NCBI GenBank assembly: GCA_035495255.1
Contig: DATJGD010000074.1
Location: 318 to 64,317 of the forward strand
Direction: 5' to 3'
DNA length: 64,000 nt
From: Bacteroidota bacterium
GTDB lineage: Bacteria; Bacteroidota; Ignavibacteria; UBA10030; SZUA-254
Numbering within the stretch: the stretch's first letter is position 1; the number at the start of each line of letters is the position of its first letter. Below the pieces are notes generated by a model, which saw nothing but the letters and a program-made list of their open reading frames with translations, was not told where the DNA came from and searched no databases. Made by a program: the position numbers and the translations under genes. Shown piece by piece: positions 26,440-34,321 of the stretch.

Positions 26440-26584
26440 ACTAAGGCTGTTGGTTGTGCGTATAATTGCATGAATATACGCAGGATGGAAGGAAGAAACA
26501 AAAAAGCCCGGCGTGTCAACACCCATTGTGACCTGCGCAACATTCTCCGTTGCACGTCGCAACAAACCGACGTATTTTCGGGAG

Positions 26585-27013
26585 ATGCCTGATCGCCGCT
26601 ATAGAATTGTCATCTTTGATGACAACGAATTGTTGGGGATTACCCTCTGGCGGGAATTCCACGCCACCGGATACGAAGCATATTACCTCCGCTCAAAAGT
26701 CAACGGGCTCGACTGGATAAAGCAGTATCACCCGGATCTCATTATCTCCGACATCGAATCGCCGGAATTGGATGGATTCGAGTTTCTCAGGATCCTCAAG
26801 AGCGATCCGGCCGCATCACAAATTCCATTTATCTTCCTGACTTCCCGGGCGAGCCTCGAATCAGCGATCGAAGCAAAGAACATGGGCGCAGCTGATTTTG
26901 TCAGCAAGCCCTACGACCCGACAGACCTCCAGGAAGTCGTACGCAGGGTGCTGCAGGAGCATTCCGGACACGACCTTCATGCAAGCACGAGCGGGAAAAT
27001 GCCGATGTACTGA
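26585..27013 (+). CDS. single-domain response regulator (CheY-like receiver)
   Basis: IVIFDDNE acidic pocket, phospho-acceptor in PDLIISDIESPELDG, FIFLTS, DFVSKPYD. Confidence 0.8.
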   Translation: MPDRRYRIVIFDDNELLGITLWREFHATGYEAYYLRSKVNGLDWIKQYHPDLIISDIESPELDGFEFLRILKSDPAASQIPFIFLTSRASLESAIEAKNMGAADFVSKPYDPTDLQEVVRRVLQEHSGHDLHASTSGKMPMY

Positions 27014-27059
27014 GCTTTTTCTTTTGAACCACCATACACACCAACAACCGGGAGCATTC

Positions 27060-27389
27060 ATGCACAGCAAGAAATTTAAGATCCTTCACCTCGACGACGA
27101 ACGCGAGCTTGGAGCAACTCTCCAGCAGGAGCTGGTGAATAAGGGATATGAGGCGTACTTCCTGCAATTAAAAACTGCCGGAGTAGATTGGATACGGAAC
27201 AATCAACCTGACCTCATTGTCTCTGACATCAGATATTTCGATACCGACGGATTCGAGTTTCTGCGGAACCTGCAATCCGATCCCGTGACATGCAAAATTC
27301 CCTTTATATTTCTCACAGGCTCTGCCGATCTCAATTTTGCGATGTCTGCAATGACGTCGGCGCATGCCACTTGCAACCGGGAGAACTAA
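27060..27389 (+). CDS. receiver-domain protein, C-terminally short/degenerate paralog
   Basis: KILHLDDE, PDLIVSDIRYFDTDG, FIFLTGS, but it ends before the conserved K of the receiver fold; GGAG RBS before the ATG. Confidence 0.6.
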   Translation: MHSKKFKILHLDDERELGATLQQELVNKGYEAYFLQLKTAGVDWIRNNQPDLIVSDIRYFDTDGFEFLRNLQSDPVTCKIPFIFLTGSADLNFAMSAMTSAHATCNREN

Positions 27390-28207
27390 TGTCCGGCAAG
27401 AAAATTAAAATCCTGCACCTCGATGACGAAGACTGCCTTTTGAAGCTTACAGTGGATGAACTTCGGAACGAAGGTTATGACGCGCATGGAATGGATCTGA
27501 AGCGGCAGGGATTTGCCTGGATCATTGAGAATAAGCCGGATCTTGTGTTATCAGATATTAATGCGCCGGAGATAGATGGGTTTACATTTTTGCGCATGCT
27601 GAGATCAGATCCGCGAACGAGAGATACGAAGGTCATTATGATTACTGGAATGTCCGACCTCAAGACTGCGTATGAAGCTGTACAACTTGGCGCCATAGAT
27701 TTTGTATCCAAACCATTTGATTTCAAAGATCTATTCAAAGTTATCGAGCGAGCACTAGCGACACCTTTTGTATATACGCCGACCTCGACCAAGCCGGTCG
27801 CGACAGAGTTGGTTGTTCCCAAGCCGATTTCAAAGAAAAAACTTGTCATAGTGGAGAAGCAGGGAAGCTGGCTTAGGTCGATCTGCGATCGCCTTGGAGA
27901 GGAAAACTACCAGCTAACGCTTGTCAATTCATTTGAAGAATTGCTGTCGCTTCATCTTGCCGAATACAATCTTACAGTTCTTGGCGGACACCAATTTGGA
28001 AAACGCGACGCCTTGCCCGAACTGGTGAGTTATCTTAAAGCGCGTTACCCGAAGATGGATGTCATTGTTGTTTCTGCGCGTGCCGAAATTCGTCATGTCA
28101 CAGGATCTGCTGATGGGGATTCCGAAGCCGCCGTCGCGGTGCCGTATGATCTCGAGCTTATCGTTAAGTCGCTCGAGAGAATGCTGGCGAATTCCCCGGC
28201 AGTGTAA
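27389..28207 (+). CDS. response regulator with an N-terminal receiver and a C-terminal receiver-like domain lacking the acceptor Asp
   Basis: KILHLDDED, PDLVLSDINAPEIDG, IMITGMS, DFVSKPFD; second half (KKKLVIVEKQG..VIVVSARAE) is receiver-like without a conserved Asp; TAATG overlap with the previous gene. Confidence 0.75.
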   Translation: MSGKKIKILHLDDEDCLLKLTVDELRNEGYDAHGMDLKRQGFAWIIENKPDLVLSDINAPEIDGFTFLRMLRSDPRTRDTKVIMITGMSDLKTAYEAVQLGAIDFVSKPFDFKDLFKVIERALATPFVYTPTSTKPVATELVVPKPISKKKLVIVEKQGSWLRSICDRLGEENYQLTLVNSFEELLSLHLAEYNLTVLGGHQFGKRDALPELVSYLKARYPKMDVIVVSARAEIRHVTGSADGDSEAAVAVPYDLELIVKSLERMLANSPAV

Positions 28208-28343: not shown

Positions 28344-28372
28344 TTGACAAGTCAATGGGAATTTATTATAAT
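28344..28372 (+). promoter_or_regulatory. lexA promoter, perfect sigma70 consensus TTGACA-N17-TATAAT
   Basis: TTGACA 28344-28349, 17-nt spacer, TATAAT 28367-28372. Confidence 0.6.
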
Positions 28373-28373
28373 A

Positions 28374-28391
28374 GGTATACGTTTGTATACC
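28374..28391 (+). promoter_or_regulatory. candidate LexA operator: perfect inverted repeat GGTATAC-GTTT-GTATACC
   Basis: IR begins 2 nt after the -10 hexamer, covering the predicted +1 of lexA, 18 nt before the lexA ATG. Confidence 0.45.
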
Positions 28392-28408
28392 TATACAGGA
28401 AAGGGCCT

Positions 28409-29047
28409 ATGGCTGAAGAATTAACAAATAGACAGCGCAAAATACTCGAGTTTATTCAGGCATTTATGCAGAAAAACGGCTTCCCGCCGTCAGTACGCGA
28501 AATCGGGGCGAAAATGAATATTGCCTCTCCCCGGGGAGTTGCCAAGCATCTCGAGGCCTTGGAGCGAAAAGGGCACATCCGGCGAAGCGCCGGCATGCAG
28601 CGCGGTCTTAAAGTTAATAACGTCGCCATCGGCAAGGAAACCCCCATTCTCGGCAGGATCGCAGCAGGCAAGCCCCTCACCGCCGTGGAAAACCTGGAAG
28701 GCTCGATGATGCTCGATTCCGCATTTTCGAAGCTCGGCCCGACATTCCTCCTCAAAGTCAAAGGAGAAAGCATGAAAGACGCGGGCATTTTCGACGGTGA
28801 CCTCGTCCTTGTGCGCCAGCAGCAGACAGCGGAGCAGGGAGACATCGTGGCAGCCCTTCTCAATGAAGAAGCGACTGTAAAGTATTTCAAGAAAAAGAAA
28901 GAAACGATCTCTCTCGAGCCGGCAAACGAAGCATTCCGGCCGATCGTCGTGCAGCCGCATGACCAGTTCGCCATCGCCGGCAAAGTCATCGCCGCGATCC
29001 GGGTGCTGGATACTACAGTTGTCAATGCGATGTATGGAAAGAATTGA
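28409..29047 (+). CDS. lexA: LexA repressor (S24 peptidase, SOS regulator)
   Basis: N-terminal winged HTH (LTNRQRKILEFI..PSVREIG), Ala-Gly cleavage site (IAAGKPL), catalytic Ser (VKGESMKDAGI) and Lys (TVKYFKKK). Confidence 0.92.
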   Translation: MAEELTNRQRKILEFIQAFMQKNGFPPSVREIGAKMNIASPRGVAKHLEALERKGHIRRSAGMQRGLKVNNVAIGKETPILGRIAAGKPLTAVENLEGSMMLDSAFSKLGPTFLLKVKGESMKDAGIFDGDLVLVRQQQTAEQGDIVAALLNEEATVKYFKKKKETISLEPANEAFRPIVVQPHDQFAIAGKVIAAIRVLDTTVVNAMYGKN

Positions 29048-29117
29048 TTAAGGGTGACAGCCCGTTAACTATGAAAATCAAAGAACAATCGACGAATCAA
29101 CTACAAAGGAGCAGGTT

Positions 29118-30038
29118 ATGAGCAAGATCTATATTGGCATGGGCGGGTGGGAGCTGCATCCCTTCAATCAGTATTTTTATCCTCCGAAACCTAAAAAGGG
29201 TTTCCGGAAGCTGGAGTTCTACAGCCAGTTCTTCGACAGCATCGAAGTCAACGTGTCGTTTTATAATACGGCGCTGACGCAGGTGCATTCCCGCAGGTGG
29301 CTGCAGGATGTTTCGGCAAATAAAGAATTCATGTTTACGGTAAAGCTGTTCCAGGGGTTCACGCACACTTTCGACGCGACGACACAGGACGTTCAAGGCG
29401 TGCATAAGCTCCTCGAGCCTCTTGCCGCCGAAGGAAAGCTGGGCGGGCTTCTCATGCAGTTCCCCTACTCGTTCACGAATCTCGGAGAACGCAGGAGATA
29501 TCTGGCGCAGCTGAGCAAGGTATTTCATCAGTACAGGCTGTTCGTCGAACTGCGGCACAACTCGTGGAACAGTCCGGCAACGTACAACTTCCTCCAGGAG
29601 CACAAACTCCATCTGGTCAACGTCGATCTCCCCCAGGTTAACCGGAACATGCCACTTACCGCCCTCTCATGGAACGGCGCGGCATACTTCCGCATGATGG
29701 GAAGAAATGTTGATACCTGGAACAATCCCTGGAAGCTGGAGGAAGATAACGAACACGTGGTCGGCAACCGCTACAACTACTCTTATTCCGAGCGCGAGCT
29801 GGAATTACTGCTCTATTATATCAAGAAGGTAAGTTCTGCGAACACGAATGTCTATGTGGTATTTCACAACGACCCTGAGGCGAATTCGCTGATCAATGGG
29901 TTTCAGCTGCGGCATCTCGCACGGCATAACCACCGGGTGCTGGTACCACAGAACCTTATCCGCAAGTATCCTGATCTGAAACATATCAGCTCAGAGGTGA
30001 ATGTCAACCACAAGCTGTTCGCCGAGGTGGAGGCTTAG
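29118..30038 (+). CDS. DUF72 (UPF0759/YecE-like) family protein
   Basis: YIGMGGWELHPFNQYFYPP..KLEFYSQFFDSIEVNVSFYNTALTQVHSRRW matches the DUF72 N-terminal signature (IGTSGW..WY..LEYYA..F..VEVN.TFY). Confidence 0.75.
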   Translation: MSKIYIGMGGWELHPFNQYFYPPKPKKGFRKLEFYSQFFDSIEVNVSFYNTALTQVHSRRWLQDVSANKEFMFTVKLFQGFTHTFDATTQDVQGVHKLLEPLAAEGKLGGLLMQFPYSFTNLGERRRYLAQLSKVFHQYRLFVELRHNSWNSPATYNFLQEHKLHLVNVDLPQVNRNMPLTALSWNGAAYFRMMGRNVDTWNNPWKLEEDNEHVVGNRYNYSYSERELELLLYYIKKVSSANTNVYVVFHNDPEANSLINGFQLRHLARHNHRVLVPQNLIRKYPDLKHISSEVNVNHKLFAEVEA

Positions 30039-30766
30039 TCCTCCTCCTCGATCGGCGTGAGGCATTCGGGAACATCGTTCTTCGAATTGCTGACGAGGCG
30101 TGAAACGAGGTAGGCTTTCATCTTTTTTGCAGGATACGGCGCGAGGAGTTTTTTGAGTTTATCAGTTTCCTTGTAATCCCGGTCGAGCCATTGCTCGAAG
30201 TTTTTTTCCTCGAGGATGACAGGCATTCGGTTATGGATTGGAGCCATCAACGTATTGGGTTCCGTCGTGATGATGGAAAAGGTGGGAAATTCTTCTTCCG
30301 TTTTCGGATTTTTCCAGACGGAAAAGAGTCCTGCGAACATGAACGGTTGTTCGTCGGCCATGCGGATACAGACAGGCTGTTTTTCGACGATCTCTTTCGT
30401 CTTCCCTTTCACTTCCTTGGTGGTTGTGAGTTTCTTCCATTCGTAGAACGCTTCGGCGGGAACGAGGCAGCGGCTTCCTTTGAAATACACTTTCCAGAGG
30501 TTGCTCGTATCAAGAGATTCCGCCTTTGCGTTGAACGCGCTGAACCCGGGCTTGTTCTCTTTCGACCAGTGCGGAATAAGCCACCACTGCATCGCCTGGA
30601 TGGCATCTTCGCCGTTGCGCTGGGCGACAACCGGCATCTTCTGCATCGGCGAAGCGTTGTACCGGGGCAGCATCTCAAAGACCTGGCCCATCTGCCGCAT
30701 TTTTTTCATCTGCTCGAACGTCAAAAATACCTTTTTGGCGTTCACGAGCGCGTAACGTCCACACAT
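30035..30766 (-). CDS. SOS response-associated peptidase (SRAP/YedK/HMCES family, abasic-site DNA-protein crosslinking)
   Basis: protein begins MCGRYAL (catalytic Cys2 after Met removal), 244 aa, conserved ..WK..T.. and ..NMP..L.. motifs; start ATG at 30766. Confidence 0.85.
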   Translation of the reverse strand: MCGRYALVNAKKVFLTFEQMKKMRQMGQVFEMLPRYNASPMQKMPVVAQRNGEDAIQAMQWWLIPHWSKENKPGFSAFNAKAESLDTSNLWKVYFKGSRCLVPAEAFYEWKKLTTTKEVKGKTKEIVEKQPVCIRMADEQPFMFAGLFSVWKNPKTEEEFPTFSIITTEPNTLMAPIHNRMPVILEEKNFEQWLDRDYKETDKLKKLLAPYPAKKMKAYLVSRLVSNSKNDVPECLTPIEEED

Positions 30767-30809
30767 ATGTCTATAATATACGCATTGGCAGCCTAAGAAT
30801 CGATAGTGT

Positions 30810-31433
30810 ATGATACCCATCCCGTTAACATCGCACACGCTGACGCGATCGCTGCTGCGGCCCGCCGGCAACATGTCGCTCGTCTACGGAGACTCGCTCG
30901 TATTCCGTCTCTCCATGATCACTGCGGCGGAATTGCTGGCGAGCGGCGGAACCATCGCCGTCGTCGACGGCTGCAACAGGTTCGACCTTCACGCAATTAC
31001 AAAGTACGCCCGCGAGCGGAAACTCGATCCGCATCCCCTGCTCGACCGCGTCTTCGTGTCCCGCGGATTTACCTGCTACCAGATGGAAGCGGCCGTAACG
31101 ACCAAGCTTCCCGAGTTTCTTTTCCGGCATAACGGACAGACCGCGATGATCTTCGGCCTTCTCGATACGTTCTACGACGAACAGGTGTCCTTGCAGGAAG
31201 TTCAGCACATCCTTCAACGCGTCCTCCGTGCCCTCGACGAAATGAAACAGAAAAATATTTCCATCCTCCTCGCCTGCACGGAGTGGAACGTGCATCCGAA
31301 GGAGCGCAACATGCTCTTCGACCACCTGAAAAACGGCATGGACCGCATCTACCGGCTCGTGAGGGACGAAGCAGAGCAGCCGAAACTGTTTCTTGAAGAA
31401 CAATATCCGGTACAGCTGCAGAAGAGCGCCTAA
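30810..31433 (+). CDS. ImuA/SulA-like RecA-fold protein (no Walker A)
   Basis: 207 aa; ELLASGGTIAVVDGCNRFDLHAI...AMIFGLLDTFYDE...ISILLAC resembles the inactive RecA/KaiC-like core of ImuA/SulA proteins; divergent from SRAP and directly upstream of a polymerase gene. Confidence 0.4.
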   Translation: MIPIPLTSHTLTRSLLRPAGNMSLVYGDSLVFRLSMITAAELLASGGTIAVVDGCNRFDLHAITKYARERKLDPHPLLDRVFVSRGFTCYQMEAAVTTKLPEFLFRHNGQTAMIFGLLDTFYDEQVSLQEVQHILQRVLRALDEMKQKNISILLACTEWNVHPKERNMLFDHLKNGMDRIYRLVRDEAEQPKLFLEEQYPVQLQKSA

Positions 31434-31714
31434 TGGGCAGAACCGTACCGACATTTACGAATATCATCGATGCCGAGCTGGCGTCATGGGGAAAGTACCG
31501 CCGGGGATTGCGAAAGAAGGACCAGGAGACGTTCGACGAGATGTTCCGCGCCGCGAAACAGCATCTCGCCGAAAACTTTTACGCGATGCGCACGATCCCG
31601 TTCGAAAGCATCATCGTCTCGCTCGTCCTGGAACAGCACAAGCGCATCAAACAACTTGAACAACGGGTGGCGGAATTAAAAAATGACGCAAACGATCAAC
31701 GGATGGCTCTTTGA
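31433..31714 (+). CDS. small hypothetical protein (93 aa) translationally coupled between the ImuA-like and polymerase genes
   Basis: TAATG overlap with the upstream gene, 32-nt overlap with the polymerase start; C-terminal coiled-coil-like KQLEQRVAELKNDANDQ. Confidence 0.35.
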   Translation: MGRTVPTFTNIIDAELASWGKYRRGLRKKDQETFDEMFRAAKQHLAENFYAMRTIPFESIIVSLVLEQHKRIKQLEQRVAELKNDANDQRMAL

Positions 31715-34004
31715 CATCTATCCCGCCCCCTCGGGGGTCACGCTCTGGTTCATCGACACGAACGGAAATAAACATTGCTGTTTCCGCACGTTCACCCCTT
31801 CATTTTTTCTCCATGTCGATGCCAACGACGCGCGCCGGGCCGAAGTCCTCGGGCAGCGGTGCCCTGTACCGGTAACATTCCAGAAGACGAGCCGGCAGGA
31901 GCTCTTCTCCGGCGAATGGCGGGACGTCGTGCAGGTTTTCGTGCACAACCCGATGCGGTTCCGGCAGGCGGTGATCTATTATGAACGTTTCTTTCCGCAT
32001 TTCGCGCTCTACAATTCAGACATCCGTGTCGAGCAGTTGTTTCTCTACGAAACGCAGCTCTTCCCTCTGGGCTACGGCGATTACCTCGTCGATGAAAAAG
32101 GGGAACTGACCGGCTGGACCTTGCGCGACTCCCGGGACGCGGTGGAGTACACCCTCCCGCCCCTCTCGATGATGATGATCCGGAACGCGAACGATTTTGT
32201 CCCTCCGAAATACCAGAGATTTCTCCAGCTTGAGGTGATGTACGACGGCATGACCTACGCGCTCGAGCAGGAGACTCCGGTCGAGATGCTCGAAGCGCTC
32301 AACGGGCACATCTACAGATACGACCCCGACATTATCCTCACGGAGTACGGAGATCCCGTGCTCATGCCGAAAATCACCCAGATGGCGCACCGTTATAACG
32401 TCCCACTTTTATTTAACAGGGACCTGCGCGCCACCTATAAAGTTTCCCGCGAATCGAGCTTCTTCCAGTACGGGAAGGTCGTCCACAAGGACGGCGCGTT
32501 CGAGCTGCGGGGGCGGTGGCACGTCGACGCAAATAACTCATTTACTATTATCGAATCAGACCTGGAAGGTTTATATGAACTCATTCGTGTCACGCAGCTT
32601 TGTCCGCAGCACCAGGCCCGCGCCTCGATCGGCACGGGTCTCTCTTCCCTTCAGCTTTCCTGGGCATACCGCAACAAGGTCCTCATTCCCTCGAAGAAAC
32701 GGGAACCGGAAGAATTCAAGCCTGCCTCCCTCTTATTACTTGCCGACCGTGGCGGTCTCATTTATATGCCGCCCCTCGGATATCACGAAGAGGTCGCCGA
32801 GCTCGATTTTGCTTCGATGTACCCTTCCATTATGGTGACGCAGAACGTCTCGCCGGAAACGGTGAACTGCCGGTGCTGCCATAACAGTGCGGTGCCGGAG
32901 CTCGGGTACACGATCTGCGAGCGCCGGGAAGGGATCATTCCGGCGACATTACGCTCGATCGTCGAAAAGCGGGCATACTATAAGCAGCGGAAAAAAGAAT
33001 TCAAGGGGAAGAACCCGTTGCTGTATAACATGTACGACCGCCGGCAGAATTCATTGAAGTGGATGCTCGTCAGCTGTTTCGGATACCTGGGTTACAAGAA
33101 CGCGCGGTTCGGAAGGATCGAGGCGCATGAATCTGTCAACGCCTTCTCGCGCGACGCCATCCTCACCGCAAAAGAAATCGCCGAAGAGCGCGGCTACGAG
33201 CTTCTCCACGCGATCATCGATTGCATGTGGCTGAAAAAAGAAGGGGCGACGGAACAGGACTACCTGGACCTCTGCCGGGAAATTGCCGAACGTGTAAACA
33301 TCCAGATTTCTCTCGAAGGCATCTACGATTGGATTCTTTTTCCGTCGTCGAAGATGGACGCGGGAATGCCCACCGGCACGCGGTACGTGGGATGGTACCA
33401 TCACGGGGACATCAAAATACGGGGAATAGAATCGCGCCGCCGTGATACGCCGAAGTTCATCAAGAACATGCAGGCTGCGATGCTCGACCATATGTCGGCA
33501 GCCCGCCGCACCTCCGAACTTGAAGCGATCGTCCCCGAGCTGCTGGATGTTGCCCGCGAGCATGTCATGGTCCTTCGGAGCGGCAAAGCAAATCCGATGG
33601 AGCTTGTCTTGCGGCGGCATATCACGAAGGAAGCAGAAGAATACTCGAACAACAGCATCAGCGCCACAGTCACGCAGATGCTCGAAGAGTGCGGCGTTCA
33701 CCTCGCCGCCGGCGAGCTCATCGAGTTTATTATCATCGACGCGACCGGAAAGAAGCAGCCGGATAAGGCCAAACCGCTTTCCCTCTATGCGTTTGAGGAC
33801 GGGTACGATATCGAGAAGTATACCGAACTGGCGCTCAAAGCGGTCGAAACGCTCCTCAGCCCGTTCGGTTATTCGTACGAGCGGCTGCAGGAGGAGTTCG
33901 ACTGCACGCCGAAGAAAAAGCGCAGAATACAACTCAAAAAGGTGGAACCTTCTGAGTTAACTCTCTTTCACGAGCTGCAGAACACGGGGACGGAAAGAGC
34001 CTAA
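31683..34004 (+). CDS. polB: family B DNA polymerase, E. coli Pol II-like, predicted exonuclease-deficient
   Basis: N-terminus LWFIDTNG parallels Pol II SFWLATDNG; motif A DFASMYPSIM, motif B KWMLVSCFGYLGYKNARFG, KxY-like TRYVGWY, motif C replaced by LLHAIIDCMWL; Exo I position reads LSMMMIRNAND instead of (S)IDIETT, Exo III YELIR instead of YxxxD. Confidence 0.85.
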   Translation: MTQTINGWLFDIYPAPSGVTLWFIDTNGNKHCCFRTFTPSFFLHVDANDARRAEVLGQRCPVPVTFQKTSRQELFSGEWRDVVQVFVHNPMRFRQAVIYYERFFPHFALYNSDIRVEQLFLYETQLFPLGYGDYLVDEKGELTGWTLRDSRDAVEYTLPPLSMMMIRNANDFVPPKYQRFLQLEVMYDGMTYALEQETPVEMLEALNGHIYRYDPDIILTEYGDPVLMPKITQMAHRYNVPLLFNRDLRATYKVSRESSFFQYGKVVHKDGAFELRGRWHVDANNSFTIIESDLEGLYELIRVTQLCPQHQARASIGTGLSSLQLSWAYRNKVLIPSKKREPEEFKPASLLLLADRGGLIYMPPLGYHEEVAELDFASMYPSIMVTQNVSPETVNCRCCHNSAVPELGYTICERREGIIPATLRSIVEKRAYYKQRKKEFKGKNPLLYNMYDRRQNSLKWMLVSCFGYLGYKNARFGRIEAHESVNAFSRDAILTAKEIAEERGYELLHAIIDCMWLKKEGATEQDYLDLCREIAERVNIQISLEGIYDWILFPSSKMDAGMPTGTRYVGWYHHGDIKIRGIESRRRDTPKFIKNMQAAMLDHMSAARRTSELEAIVPELLDVAREHVMVLRSGKANPMELVLRRHITKEAEEYSNNSISATVTQMLEECGVHLAAGELIEFIIIDATGKKQPDKAKPLSLYAFEDGYDIEKYTELALKAVETLLSPFGYSYERLQEEFDCTPKKKRRIQLKKVEPSELTLFHELQNTGTERA

Positions 34005-34099: not shown

Positions 34100-34321
34100 T
34101 TAGTTCTGGAAGATCTTCATCGCCTCATCGATCGCGTCACGAAACTGATCGATCTGGGTGTCGAAAACCATGATGCTCGAACGGGTGAACTTCGTTTCAC
34201 CCTCCTTCGGCGGCTTGCTCTCCGAAATCGTCATATACTTCGACTTGTTTTTAGCCTCTTTGACGTCGAAAAAATACGTCCTGCCTCCCGCCTTGAGCGA
34301 GCGTGAAAATAATGCGTCCAT
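34100..34321 (-). CDS. DUF3276 (PUR-alpha-like nucleic-acid-binding) family protein, short form
   Basis: GGRTYFFDVKEAKNKSKYMTISESK matches the RTYFFDV..YL.ITESK core of DUF3276. Confidence 0.5.
   Translation of the reverse strand: MDALFSRSLKAGGRTYFFDVKEAKNKSKYMTISESKPPKEGETKFTRSSIMVFDTQIDQFRDAIDEAMKIFQN

Follow-up and report, generated by a model that had tools for sequence, protein, structure and literature searches.

A probable PolB2 mutasome operon of the iRadA-PPB2-PolB2 type beside lexA, DUF72 and SRAP genes in an Ignavibacteria genome

Introduction

What kind of polymerase system is encoded by the three overlapping genes found at 30810-34004 of the stretch analyzed here, and is it a new one? 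The window (the whole stretch, 64,000 nucleotides of contig DATJGD010000074.1, assembly GCA_035495255.1, from a member of the Ignavibacteria in the Bacteroidota) has six open reading frames (ORFs) in this region, in the order lexA(+), DUF72(+), SRAP(-), a 207-amino acid (aa) ORF(+), a 93-aa ORF(+) and a 773-aa polB(+). This order and the strands, as well as the overlaps among the last three genes, had been described in an earlier reading of the sequence (the original prediction) and were borne out by the ORF map. The 207-aa gene ends and the 93-aa gene begins in TAATG, with 1 nt shared by the stop codon and the ATG, and the overlap between the 93-aa gene and polB is 32 nt. The public annotation lists HTK82735 and HTK82736 as "hypothetical protein" and HTK82737 as "DNA polymerase domain-containing protein". 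The original prediction took the three genes for a new, LexA-controlled translesion module built around an ImuA/SulA-like protein and a Pol II-like polymerase. The results described below indicate that they are very probably a bacterial PolB2 mutasome operon, iRadA-PPB2-PolB2, descended from an archaeal operon that was transferred to bacteria. The genes are as follows.

30810..31433, + strand: iRadA (207 aa), predicted RadA/Rad51-core fold, 48% identity to a published iRadA
31433..31714, + strand: PPB2 (93 aa), N-terminus MGRTVPTFT, three predicted helices
31683..34004, + strand: PolB2 (773 aa), match to PF00136 (E=4.5e-35)

Operons of this kind are already known, and the iRadA-PPB2-PolB2 gene set, the passage of the operon from archaea into bacteria, and the enrichment of lexA, SRAP and DUF72 around it have all been published. 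Kazlauskas et al. in 2020 and an article in NAR in 2026 are reportedly among the publications on this operon. The association was first described by Makarova, Krupovic and Koonin (2014; PMC4104785), who predicted operons in which PolB2 is accompanied by an inactivated ATPase of the RadA family and by a helical protein (arCOG07300) with a length of about 90 aa, some of these operons being bacterial. Timinskas, Timinskas and Venclovas (2025; PMC11791011) named the two partners iRadA and PPB2 and found iRadA-PPB2-PolB2 to be the sole gene order in bacteria, which fits a single transfer from archaea to bacteria. In the same work, the first Asp of the DxD motif was found to be replaced in most PolB2s (IID or IVD), and a PolB2 : iRadA : (PPB2)3 pentamer was modeled with an MGRT arm located between PolB2 and iRadA, an Ignavibacteriales operon being included among the models. 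Clamp-binding motifs were described in iRadA or PolB2, with the presence of both in one operon being rare, and the polB2 neighborhoods were enriched for SRAP, DUF72 and, in bacteria, lexA. Operons of Ignavibacteriota and Bacteroidota that have DUF72, SRAP or LexA as neighbors appear in its tables. Group G2 of the bacterial PolBs defined in PMC12926913 is PolB2. The claim that the module is new fails because the operon, its bacterial members, the MGRT arm, the IID variant and the neighboring genes were already in the literature (PMC4104785, PMC11791011, PMC12926913). The locus adds nothing new in kind; it is a further example, from the Bacteroidota/Ignavibacteria, of an operon already published.

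The polymerase

The 773-aa protein aligns with solved PolB structures over residues 312-736 only, with a Thermococcales PolB as the best match (E~1e-43), and no Pol II structure was found among its 60 best matches in the Protein Data Bank (PDB). The NCBIfam archaeal type-B model NF004416 matched nearly the full length of the protein with 390 bits, while the Pol II models NF004420-22 reached 25-56 bits, compared with cut-offs of 570-1435. The N-terminal 395 aa share 61% identity with MBU1299681.1, a published Bacteroidota PolB2, and the N-terminal half shares 34% identity (E=4e-65) with an archaeal PolB2 taken from the published table. By these identities and profile scores, the polymerase is an archaeal-type PolB2 with a dead exonuclease. 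The Pol II identity that had been proposed for it was rejected on the basis of the low scores, the lack of Pol II structures among those 60 matches and the loss of the exonuclease motifs. The loss of proofreading, another claim of the original prediction, stood up well. The Pfam exonuclease domain (DNA_pol_B_exo1) had no match in the protein, residues 1-311 hardly resemble solved PolBs (a 6-bit local match in the exonuclease region), and an alignment with KOD polymerase shows substitutions at both the Exo I and the Exo II positions.

Relatives of the polymerase were collected in a scan of one genome per species, which produced 80 loci with a homolog at 50-72% identity, nearly all of them from Ignavibacteria or Bacteroidota metagenome-assembled genomes. 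Motif A is retained in the window protein (ELDFASMYPS, with D375), and motif C reads I511-I512-D513 (IID), where LLHAIIDCMWL is aligned to YIDTDGLY of the P. abyssi PolB. Among the relatives, motif C is IID in 58 and IVD in 20. The string HAIIDCMWL is present in the published table, and MBU1299681.1 has the same motif. The D(K/R) motif is found in LLLADRGG, where D355-R356 are equivalent to 253-DK-254 in MMADKGG of the S. islandicus protein. The ADRGG sequence is preceded by EEFKPA (FK[SPT]A in relatives), and F-x-x-A is the type of segment used in Rad51/RadA oligomerization. The C-terminus (...PSELTLFHELQ...) includes the clamp-like sequence ELTLF (residues 757-761, window 33951-33965). The PolB2s of 17 relatives have EL-x-LF (ELPLF in 15), mostly within QELPLF, and others end in QIPLF. 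All these sequences resemble QLSLF and QLTLF, which were recorded for other bacterial PolB2s.

An older view holds that PolB2 is catalytically inactive and that the complex, instead of synthesizing DNA, has a structural or a regulatory function in replication or repair. The replacement of the first Asp of DxD in the window protein is in line with this view, as are the residues of the KKRY region and motif B, which also deviate from those of active PolBs, and inactivation had been predicted by Makarova et al. in 2014 (PMC4104785). However, the S. islandicus PolB2, which has the same IID, shows activity in vitro and is needed for damage-induced mutagenesis according to the statements in PMC11791011 that cite Feng 2020 and 2022, and both D375 and D513, the second Asp of motif C, are invariant across the relatives. 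An inactive enzyme is thus improbable.

The RadA-like and small proteins

No Pfam family matches the 207-aa protein, and the NCBIfam search produced only weak matches to RadA and Dmc1 (E about 0.01-0.07) and none to an ImuA model at E<=0.1. An AlphaFold2 model was built from 34 sequences (mean predicted local distance difference test score 86, predicted template modeling score 0.84). When this model was compared with the PDB using Foldseek, the 50 best matches were all ATPase cores of RadA, DMC1 or Rad51 (E~1e-10, template modeling score ~0.7). Of the "ImuA/SulA-like RecA-fold" description in the original prediction, for which a Foldseek comparison had been suggested as a check, the RecA-superfamily fold was retained and the ImuA/SulA identity was discarded, as there was no ImuA match and the fold neighbors are RadA, Rad51 and DMC1. 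A Walker A motif (G-x4-GK[ST]) was not found in the window protein, which has YGDSLVFRLS at the position of the P-loop, and none of 34 homologs has GK[ST] there. A length of 207 aa leaves no space for the N-terminal helical domain. The protein shares 48% identity (E=3e-62) with MBI3110572.1, which Timinskas et al. (2025) name as an iRadA in their supplement. According to the model and these comparisons, it is an inactivated RadA/Rad51-like core protein that lacks Walker A, i.e., iRadA.

A total of 703 homologs of iRadA were found in the database, mostly from Ignavibacteriales and Bacteroidota metagenome-assembled genomes, and all of them are annotated as "hypothetical" and have no Pfam family. 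The start of the gene at 30810 is supported because the N-terminal 20 residues are conserved among homologs. A near-invariant P-x-LFLE is located at the C-terminal end of the family and corresponds to PKLFLE at 31383-31400 of the window. The LFLE of iRadA and the ELTLF of PolB2 are candidate beta-clamp-binding motifs. Many of the annotated homologs (P0019, P0020, P0112 and others) have C-terminal extensions (..GTNRTDLYEHHRQRD..) that correspond to the conserved DNA of the PPB2 N-terminus read in another frame (window 31393-31659, + strand, alternative frame). These extensions arise because the position of the iRadA stop codon varies, and they are probably annotation artifacts and not true fusions.

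The 93-aa protein starts with MGRTVPTFT, which is invariant in an alignment of 25 PPB2 sequences. AlphaFold2 predicted helices at residues 8-23, 28-48 and 57-92 and an unstructured arm at residues 1-7. Residues 1-20 were matched by hhalign to the S. islandicus PPB2 (MGRTQPSYT...) with E=2e-4, and the homologs found in the database carry the precomputed Pfam family PF26485, which was absent from the Pfam copy used to scan the window. By sequence, the 93-aa ORF is PPB2.

The arrangement that had been originally proposed, a previously unknown SOS mutasome of the imuA-imuB-dnaE2 type, with ImuB and DnaE2 replaced by an exonuclease-dead Pol II-like polymerase partnered by an ImuA-like protein and a small ORF, shares several properties with what was found: the 207-aa protein has a RecA-superfamily fold, the cluster adjoins lexA and SRAP, and the exonuclease is dead. 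The imuA-imuB-dnaE2 cassettes are similarly multi-gene, damage-associated, error-prone polymerase modules that include a RecA-superfamily accessory protein and are often linked to lexA/SRAP. In contrast to them, the window operon has a RadA/Rad51-type accessory protein, an archaeal origin and neither ImuB nor DnaE2; no gene for a Y-family or C-family polymerase was found in the 28.3-34.0 kb region by the ORF map and Pfam. The proposal is very unlikely when it is also considered that the 207-aa protein matches no ImuA model (its weak sequence matches are to RadA/Dmc1 and its best structures are RadA/DMC1/Rad51), that the polymerase is of the archaeal and not of the Pol II type, that the three proteins are close homologs of published iRadA, PPB2 and PolB2, and that the module is already in the literature. 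The more general part of the original prediction, a damage-tolerance module located beside lexA/SRAP in which a proofreading-dead family-B polymerase is accompanied by a small protein and a RecA-superfamily protein, agrees with the sequence evidence and is kept in the PolB2 mutasome reading.

Conservation of the operon

A survey of the gene neighborhoods, another of the checks that had been suggested, was carried out on the related loci. In 54 of the 59 loci with at least 1.5 kb of upstream sequence, polB2 is immediately preceded by iRadA and PPB2 on its own strand. The linkage is not due to chance because the order is kept in these 54/59 loci. Among the 49 loci whose upstream sequence extends for 5 kb or more, SRAP is a neighbor in 11, DUF72 in 15 and an S24/LexA-like gene in 28. 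A few relatives (L001, L002, L079, L059 and L060) have a polB2 without adjacent iRadA-PPB2, and in L079 an iRadA match lies ~5.6 kb downstream of polB2, which suggests that these are rearranged or split operons. Bacterial family-B polymerases are often carried by mobile elements and this operon was acquired horizontally from archaea, but an origin of the polymerase in a casposon, pipolin, phage replication module or other mobile element or prophage can be dismissed as extremely unlikely, since the cluster has no gene for an integrase, Cas1, a terminal protein or a phage protein (ORF map and Pfam), its GC content (0.52-0.56) is the same as that of the flanks, the housekeeping genes groEL/groES flank the operon, and the operon is widespread on Ignavibacteria/Bacteroidota chromosomes beside repair genes.

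Comparison with known systems and proposed mechanism

The window locus shares with the published PolB2 mutasome operons the gene order, the MGRT arm, the IID and D(K/R) motifs, the dead exonuclease, an iRadA that lacks the N-terminal domain and Walker A, and the lexA, SRAP and DUF72 neighbors, and its products are 48-61% identical to listed Ignavibacteriales/Bacteroidota members. Nothing essential differs; SRAP is inserted divergently, with a spacer of 43 bp between its start codon and that of iRadA. Compared with its close relatives, the window has a canonical LexA as neighbor, whereas most relatives have a CI-like S24 repressor, and there is no recognizable operator before the window operon. 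Clamp-like motifs are found in both PolB2 (ELTLF) and iRadA (LFLE), whereas the survey called no iRadA motif in the Ignavibacteriota rows listed.

The archaeal counterpart, Dpo2 of Sulfolobus/Saccharolobus, is a damage-induced translesion extender according to Feng (2020, 2022), as cited in the papers named above. It has in common with the window system the IID motif, the ADKGG/ADRGG sequence, the inactive exonuclease, the MGRT of PPB2 and a damage-response context. The gene order in Sulfolobales is PPB2-PolB2-iRadA, unlike the iRadA-PPB2-PolB2 of the window, the archaeal polymerase is shorter, and the iRadA of the Dpo2 system is too divergent to be aligned with the window family. Regulation of archaeal PolB2 is of the Orc1/Cdc6 type rather than by LexA, and the clamp motifs are of the PCNA type rather than the beta-clamp type.

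No multi-subunit translesion polymerase of family B other than the PolB2 mutasome is known in prokaryotes, and the architecture of this mutasome parallels those of Pol V and Pol zeta. An analogy with Pol V (UmuD'2C-RecA) was drawn in PMC11791011: in both cases an oligomerization-like motif connects the polymerase to a RecA/Rad51-family protein, and the N-terminal arm of a small subunit is inserted. Pol V differs in that its polymerase belongs to the Y family. The E. coli Pol II is also a family-B, SOS-inducible, extender polymerase; it differs in that it has a single subunit and active DEDDy proofreading.

A mechanism for the window locus can be drawn by analogy from the published model and the experiments with the archaeal Dpo2. 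The three overlapping genes would be co-translated to form a heteropentamer with one PolB2, one iRadA and a PPB2 trimer. PolB2 would dock on the ATPase-dead iRadA through the Rad51-oligomerization-like F-x-x-A (here FKPA, just before ADRGG), and the MGRT arm of one PPB2 would be inserted between PolB2 and iRadA, near the DNA. A clamp-type motif at a C-terminus, for which ELTLF in PolB2 and LFLE in iRadA are the candidates, may bring the complex to the beta clamp. PolB2, without proofreading and with the IID motif, would then extend distorted primer termini past lesions, producing damage-induced mutations as the Sulfolobus Dpo2 does. The bacterial PolB2 mutasome is known from genes and models, and the remaining value of the locus is experimental.

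Several points weigh against identifying the locus as a PolB2 mutasome operon of archaeal descent. HTK82735-7 were not found among the rows listed from the published supplement. The experimental evidence belongs to archaeal members, and we infer assembly, activity and induction at this locus from them. A comparison by hhalign between the window iRadA family and the divergent S. islandicus iRadA gave no significant match, so the window family is tied to archaeal iRadA by fold, synteny and the published classification; the miss agrees with the extreme divergence of the Sulfolobales iRadA noted by Makarova et al. in 2014 (PMC4104785). A LexA-type palindrome was not found before the operon when up to 3 mismatches and spacers of 3-5 nt were allowed, the matches being at background level, and the promoter of the operon is itself a guess.

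Neighboring genes

The genes that precede the operon are listed below.

28409..29047, + strand: lexA (ORF 28355..29047), canonical LexA repressor with a winged-helix DNA-binding domain and an S24 autopeptidase
29118..30038, + strand: DUF72 protein, match to PF01904 (E=1.9e-44)
30035..30766, - strand: SRAP (long ORF 30035..30874), match to PF02586 (E=1.3e-63)

SRAP is an abasic-site-shielding protein. The Pfam match of the SRAP ORF begins at MCGRY (Met-Cys), residue 37 of the long ORF, and its start was set at 30766 for this reason. The lexA product matches Pfam PF01726 (LexA_DNA_bind) and PF00717 (Peptidase_S24), and scored 219 bits with TIGR00498 (cut-off 111). The DUF72 protein is, according to the literature, a TIM barrel akin to ultraviolet (UV)-damage endonuclease. 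SRAP, with its shielding activity, DUF72, with its UV-damage-endonuclease-like barrel, and LexA would belong to the same damage-response neighborhood as the operon.

The relatives with a canonical LexA have a conserved element of ~90 nt (ACATAGC..GGTTGTTGAAATACTCAAGCCCGG...) located 5' of DUF72 (L065, 4075-4185; L077, 3220-3338; L003, 3270-3378; L014, 3170-3285; L068, 2510-2630). It includes a long hairpin with some compensatory changes, followed by a U-run and a strong AAGGAGG, and looks like an attenuator or leader. The element had no Rfam match. The window lacks it and has a spacer of 70 bp between lexA and DUF72. Rfam analysis of the window and five related loci identified only two tRNAs, both in related loci (two loci).

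Regulation

The original prediction considered the operon to be LexA-controlled. The candidate regulatory sequences found in the window are the following.

28344..28372, + strand: lexA promoter, perfect TTGACA-17 nt-TATAAT (12/12 in the consensus scan)
28374..28391, no strand: candidate LexA autoregulatory operator, palindrome GGTATAC-GTTT-GTATACC, 2 bases past the -10 box
30772..30777, + strand: TATAAT hexamer, candidate -10 of the operon promoter, 33 nt 5' of the iRadA ATG, with no good -35

The lexA start was taken at M19 because the first ATG (28355) falls within the promoter, and the real start is probably the one at 28409. Only one zero-mismatch copy of GGTATAC-N4-GTATACC exists in the 64 kb, the one at the lexA promoter. 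Its layout is the textbook one, which makes it a probable autoregulatory operator to which LexA would bind. This palindrome has no counterpart before the operon, where the best match within 30550-30950 had 5/14 mismatches, the background level of the window, so the claim of LexA control was not sustained as formulated. The missing operator lowers the likelihood of direct control by LexA and is compatible with damage induction by another route. A sigma-70-like sequence, TTGGCA-18-TATGAT, at 30785-30814 was considered as the operon promoter and rejected, since it overlaps the start codon of iRadA, whose N-terminal 20 residues are conserved.

The situation in the relatives is different. Most of them, for example L012 (4802, 4911), L004 (4808, 4917), L025 (4957, 8336), L001 (5922, 5953) and L010 (3020), have a TTGACA followed by the palindrome ACGACA-N4-TGTCGT, which overlaps the promoter and is often present in two copies ~30 or ~100 bp apart. 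The operator is located before iRadA, before a DUF72 gene that heads the cluster, or directly before polB2 (L001, L002 and L079), and adjoins a divergent gene for a helix-turn-helix (CI-like) plus S24 repressor (for example, L012 4138..4917, - strand). The published non-canonical LexA motifs of Bacteroidetes, GGA-N5-TCC and CTAA-N5-TTAG (PMC8565304), differ from both the window palindrome and that of the relatives. The ACGACA-N4-TGTCGT motif was not found in the SOS literature searched, and it may represent an SOS-type operator of Ignavibacteria that has yet to be described. In the relatives, these arrangements provide good support for SOS-type control of the operon, and the operator, together with the CI-like S24 repressor candidate, could make such control testable in the phylum.

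The operator of the relatives was not found before the operon in the window. Its only near match in the window, at 965, lies within a 934-aa gene and was taken as a chance occurrence. For the window, SOS-type control is suggested by proximity to lexA alone. We also considered the possibility that in the lineage of the window the operon has been uncoupled from the repressor and operator of the relatives, is constitutive or otherwise controlled, and is tethered to the clamp through both PolB2 and iRadA; it is a tentative and rather doubtful scenario.

A 28-bp palindrome, GAACGTCAAAAA-TACC-TTTTTGGCGTTC, was found at 30716-30743, within the first SRAP codons and 29 nt upstream of the candidate TATAAT. 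Its arms of 12 nt are 92% complementary, and by eye it is unconserved at the DNA level in the relatives. The palindrome may be a codon-driven coincidence or could be a local regulatory site.

Other observations

A gene for a small DUF3276 protein (34100-34321, - strand; PF11680, E=6e-15), weakly similar to the PurA single-stranded DNA/RNA-binding protein, is located between polB2 and groEL/groES. It is convergent with polB2 and lies 96 bp from the polB2 stop codon. At the other end of the region, just 5' of lexA, there are three successive paralogous genes for CheY-like receiver-domain proteins (26513..27013, 26898..27389 and 27290..28207; window 26513-28207). Their products have the motifs KILHLDDE..., DLI(V/L)SDI... 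and DGF(E/T)FLR.. in common, and that of the third gene has an additional C-terminal domain.

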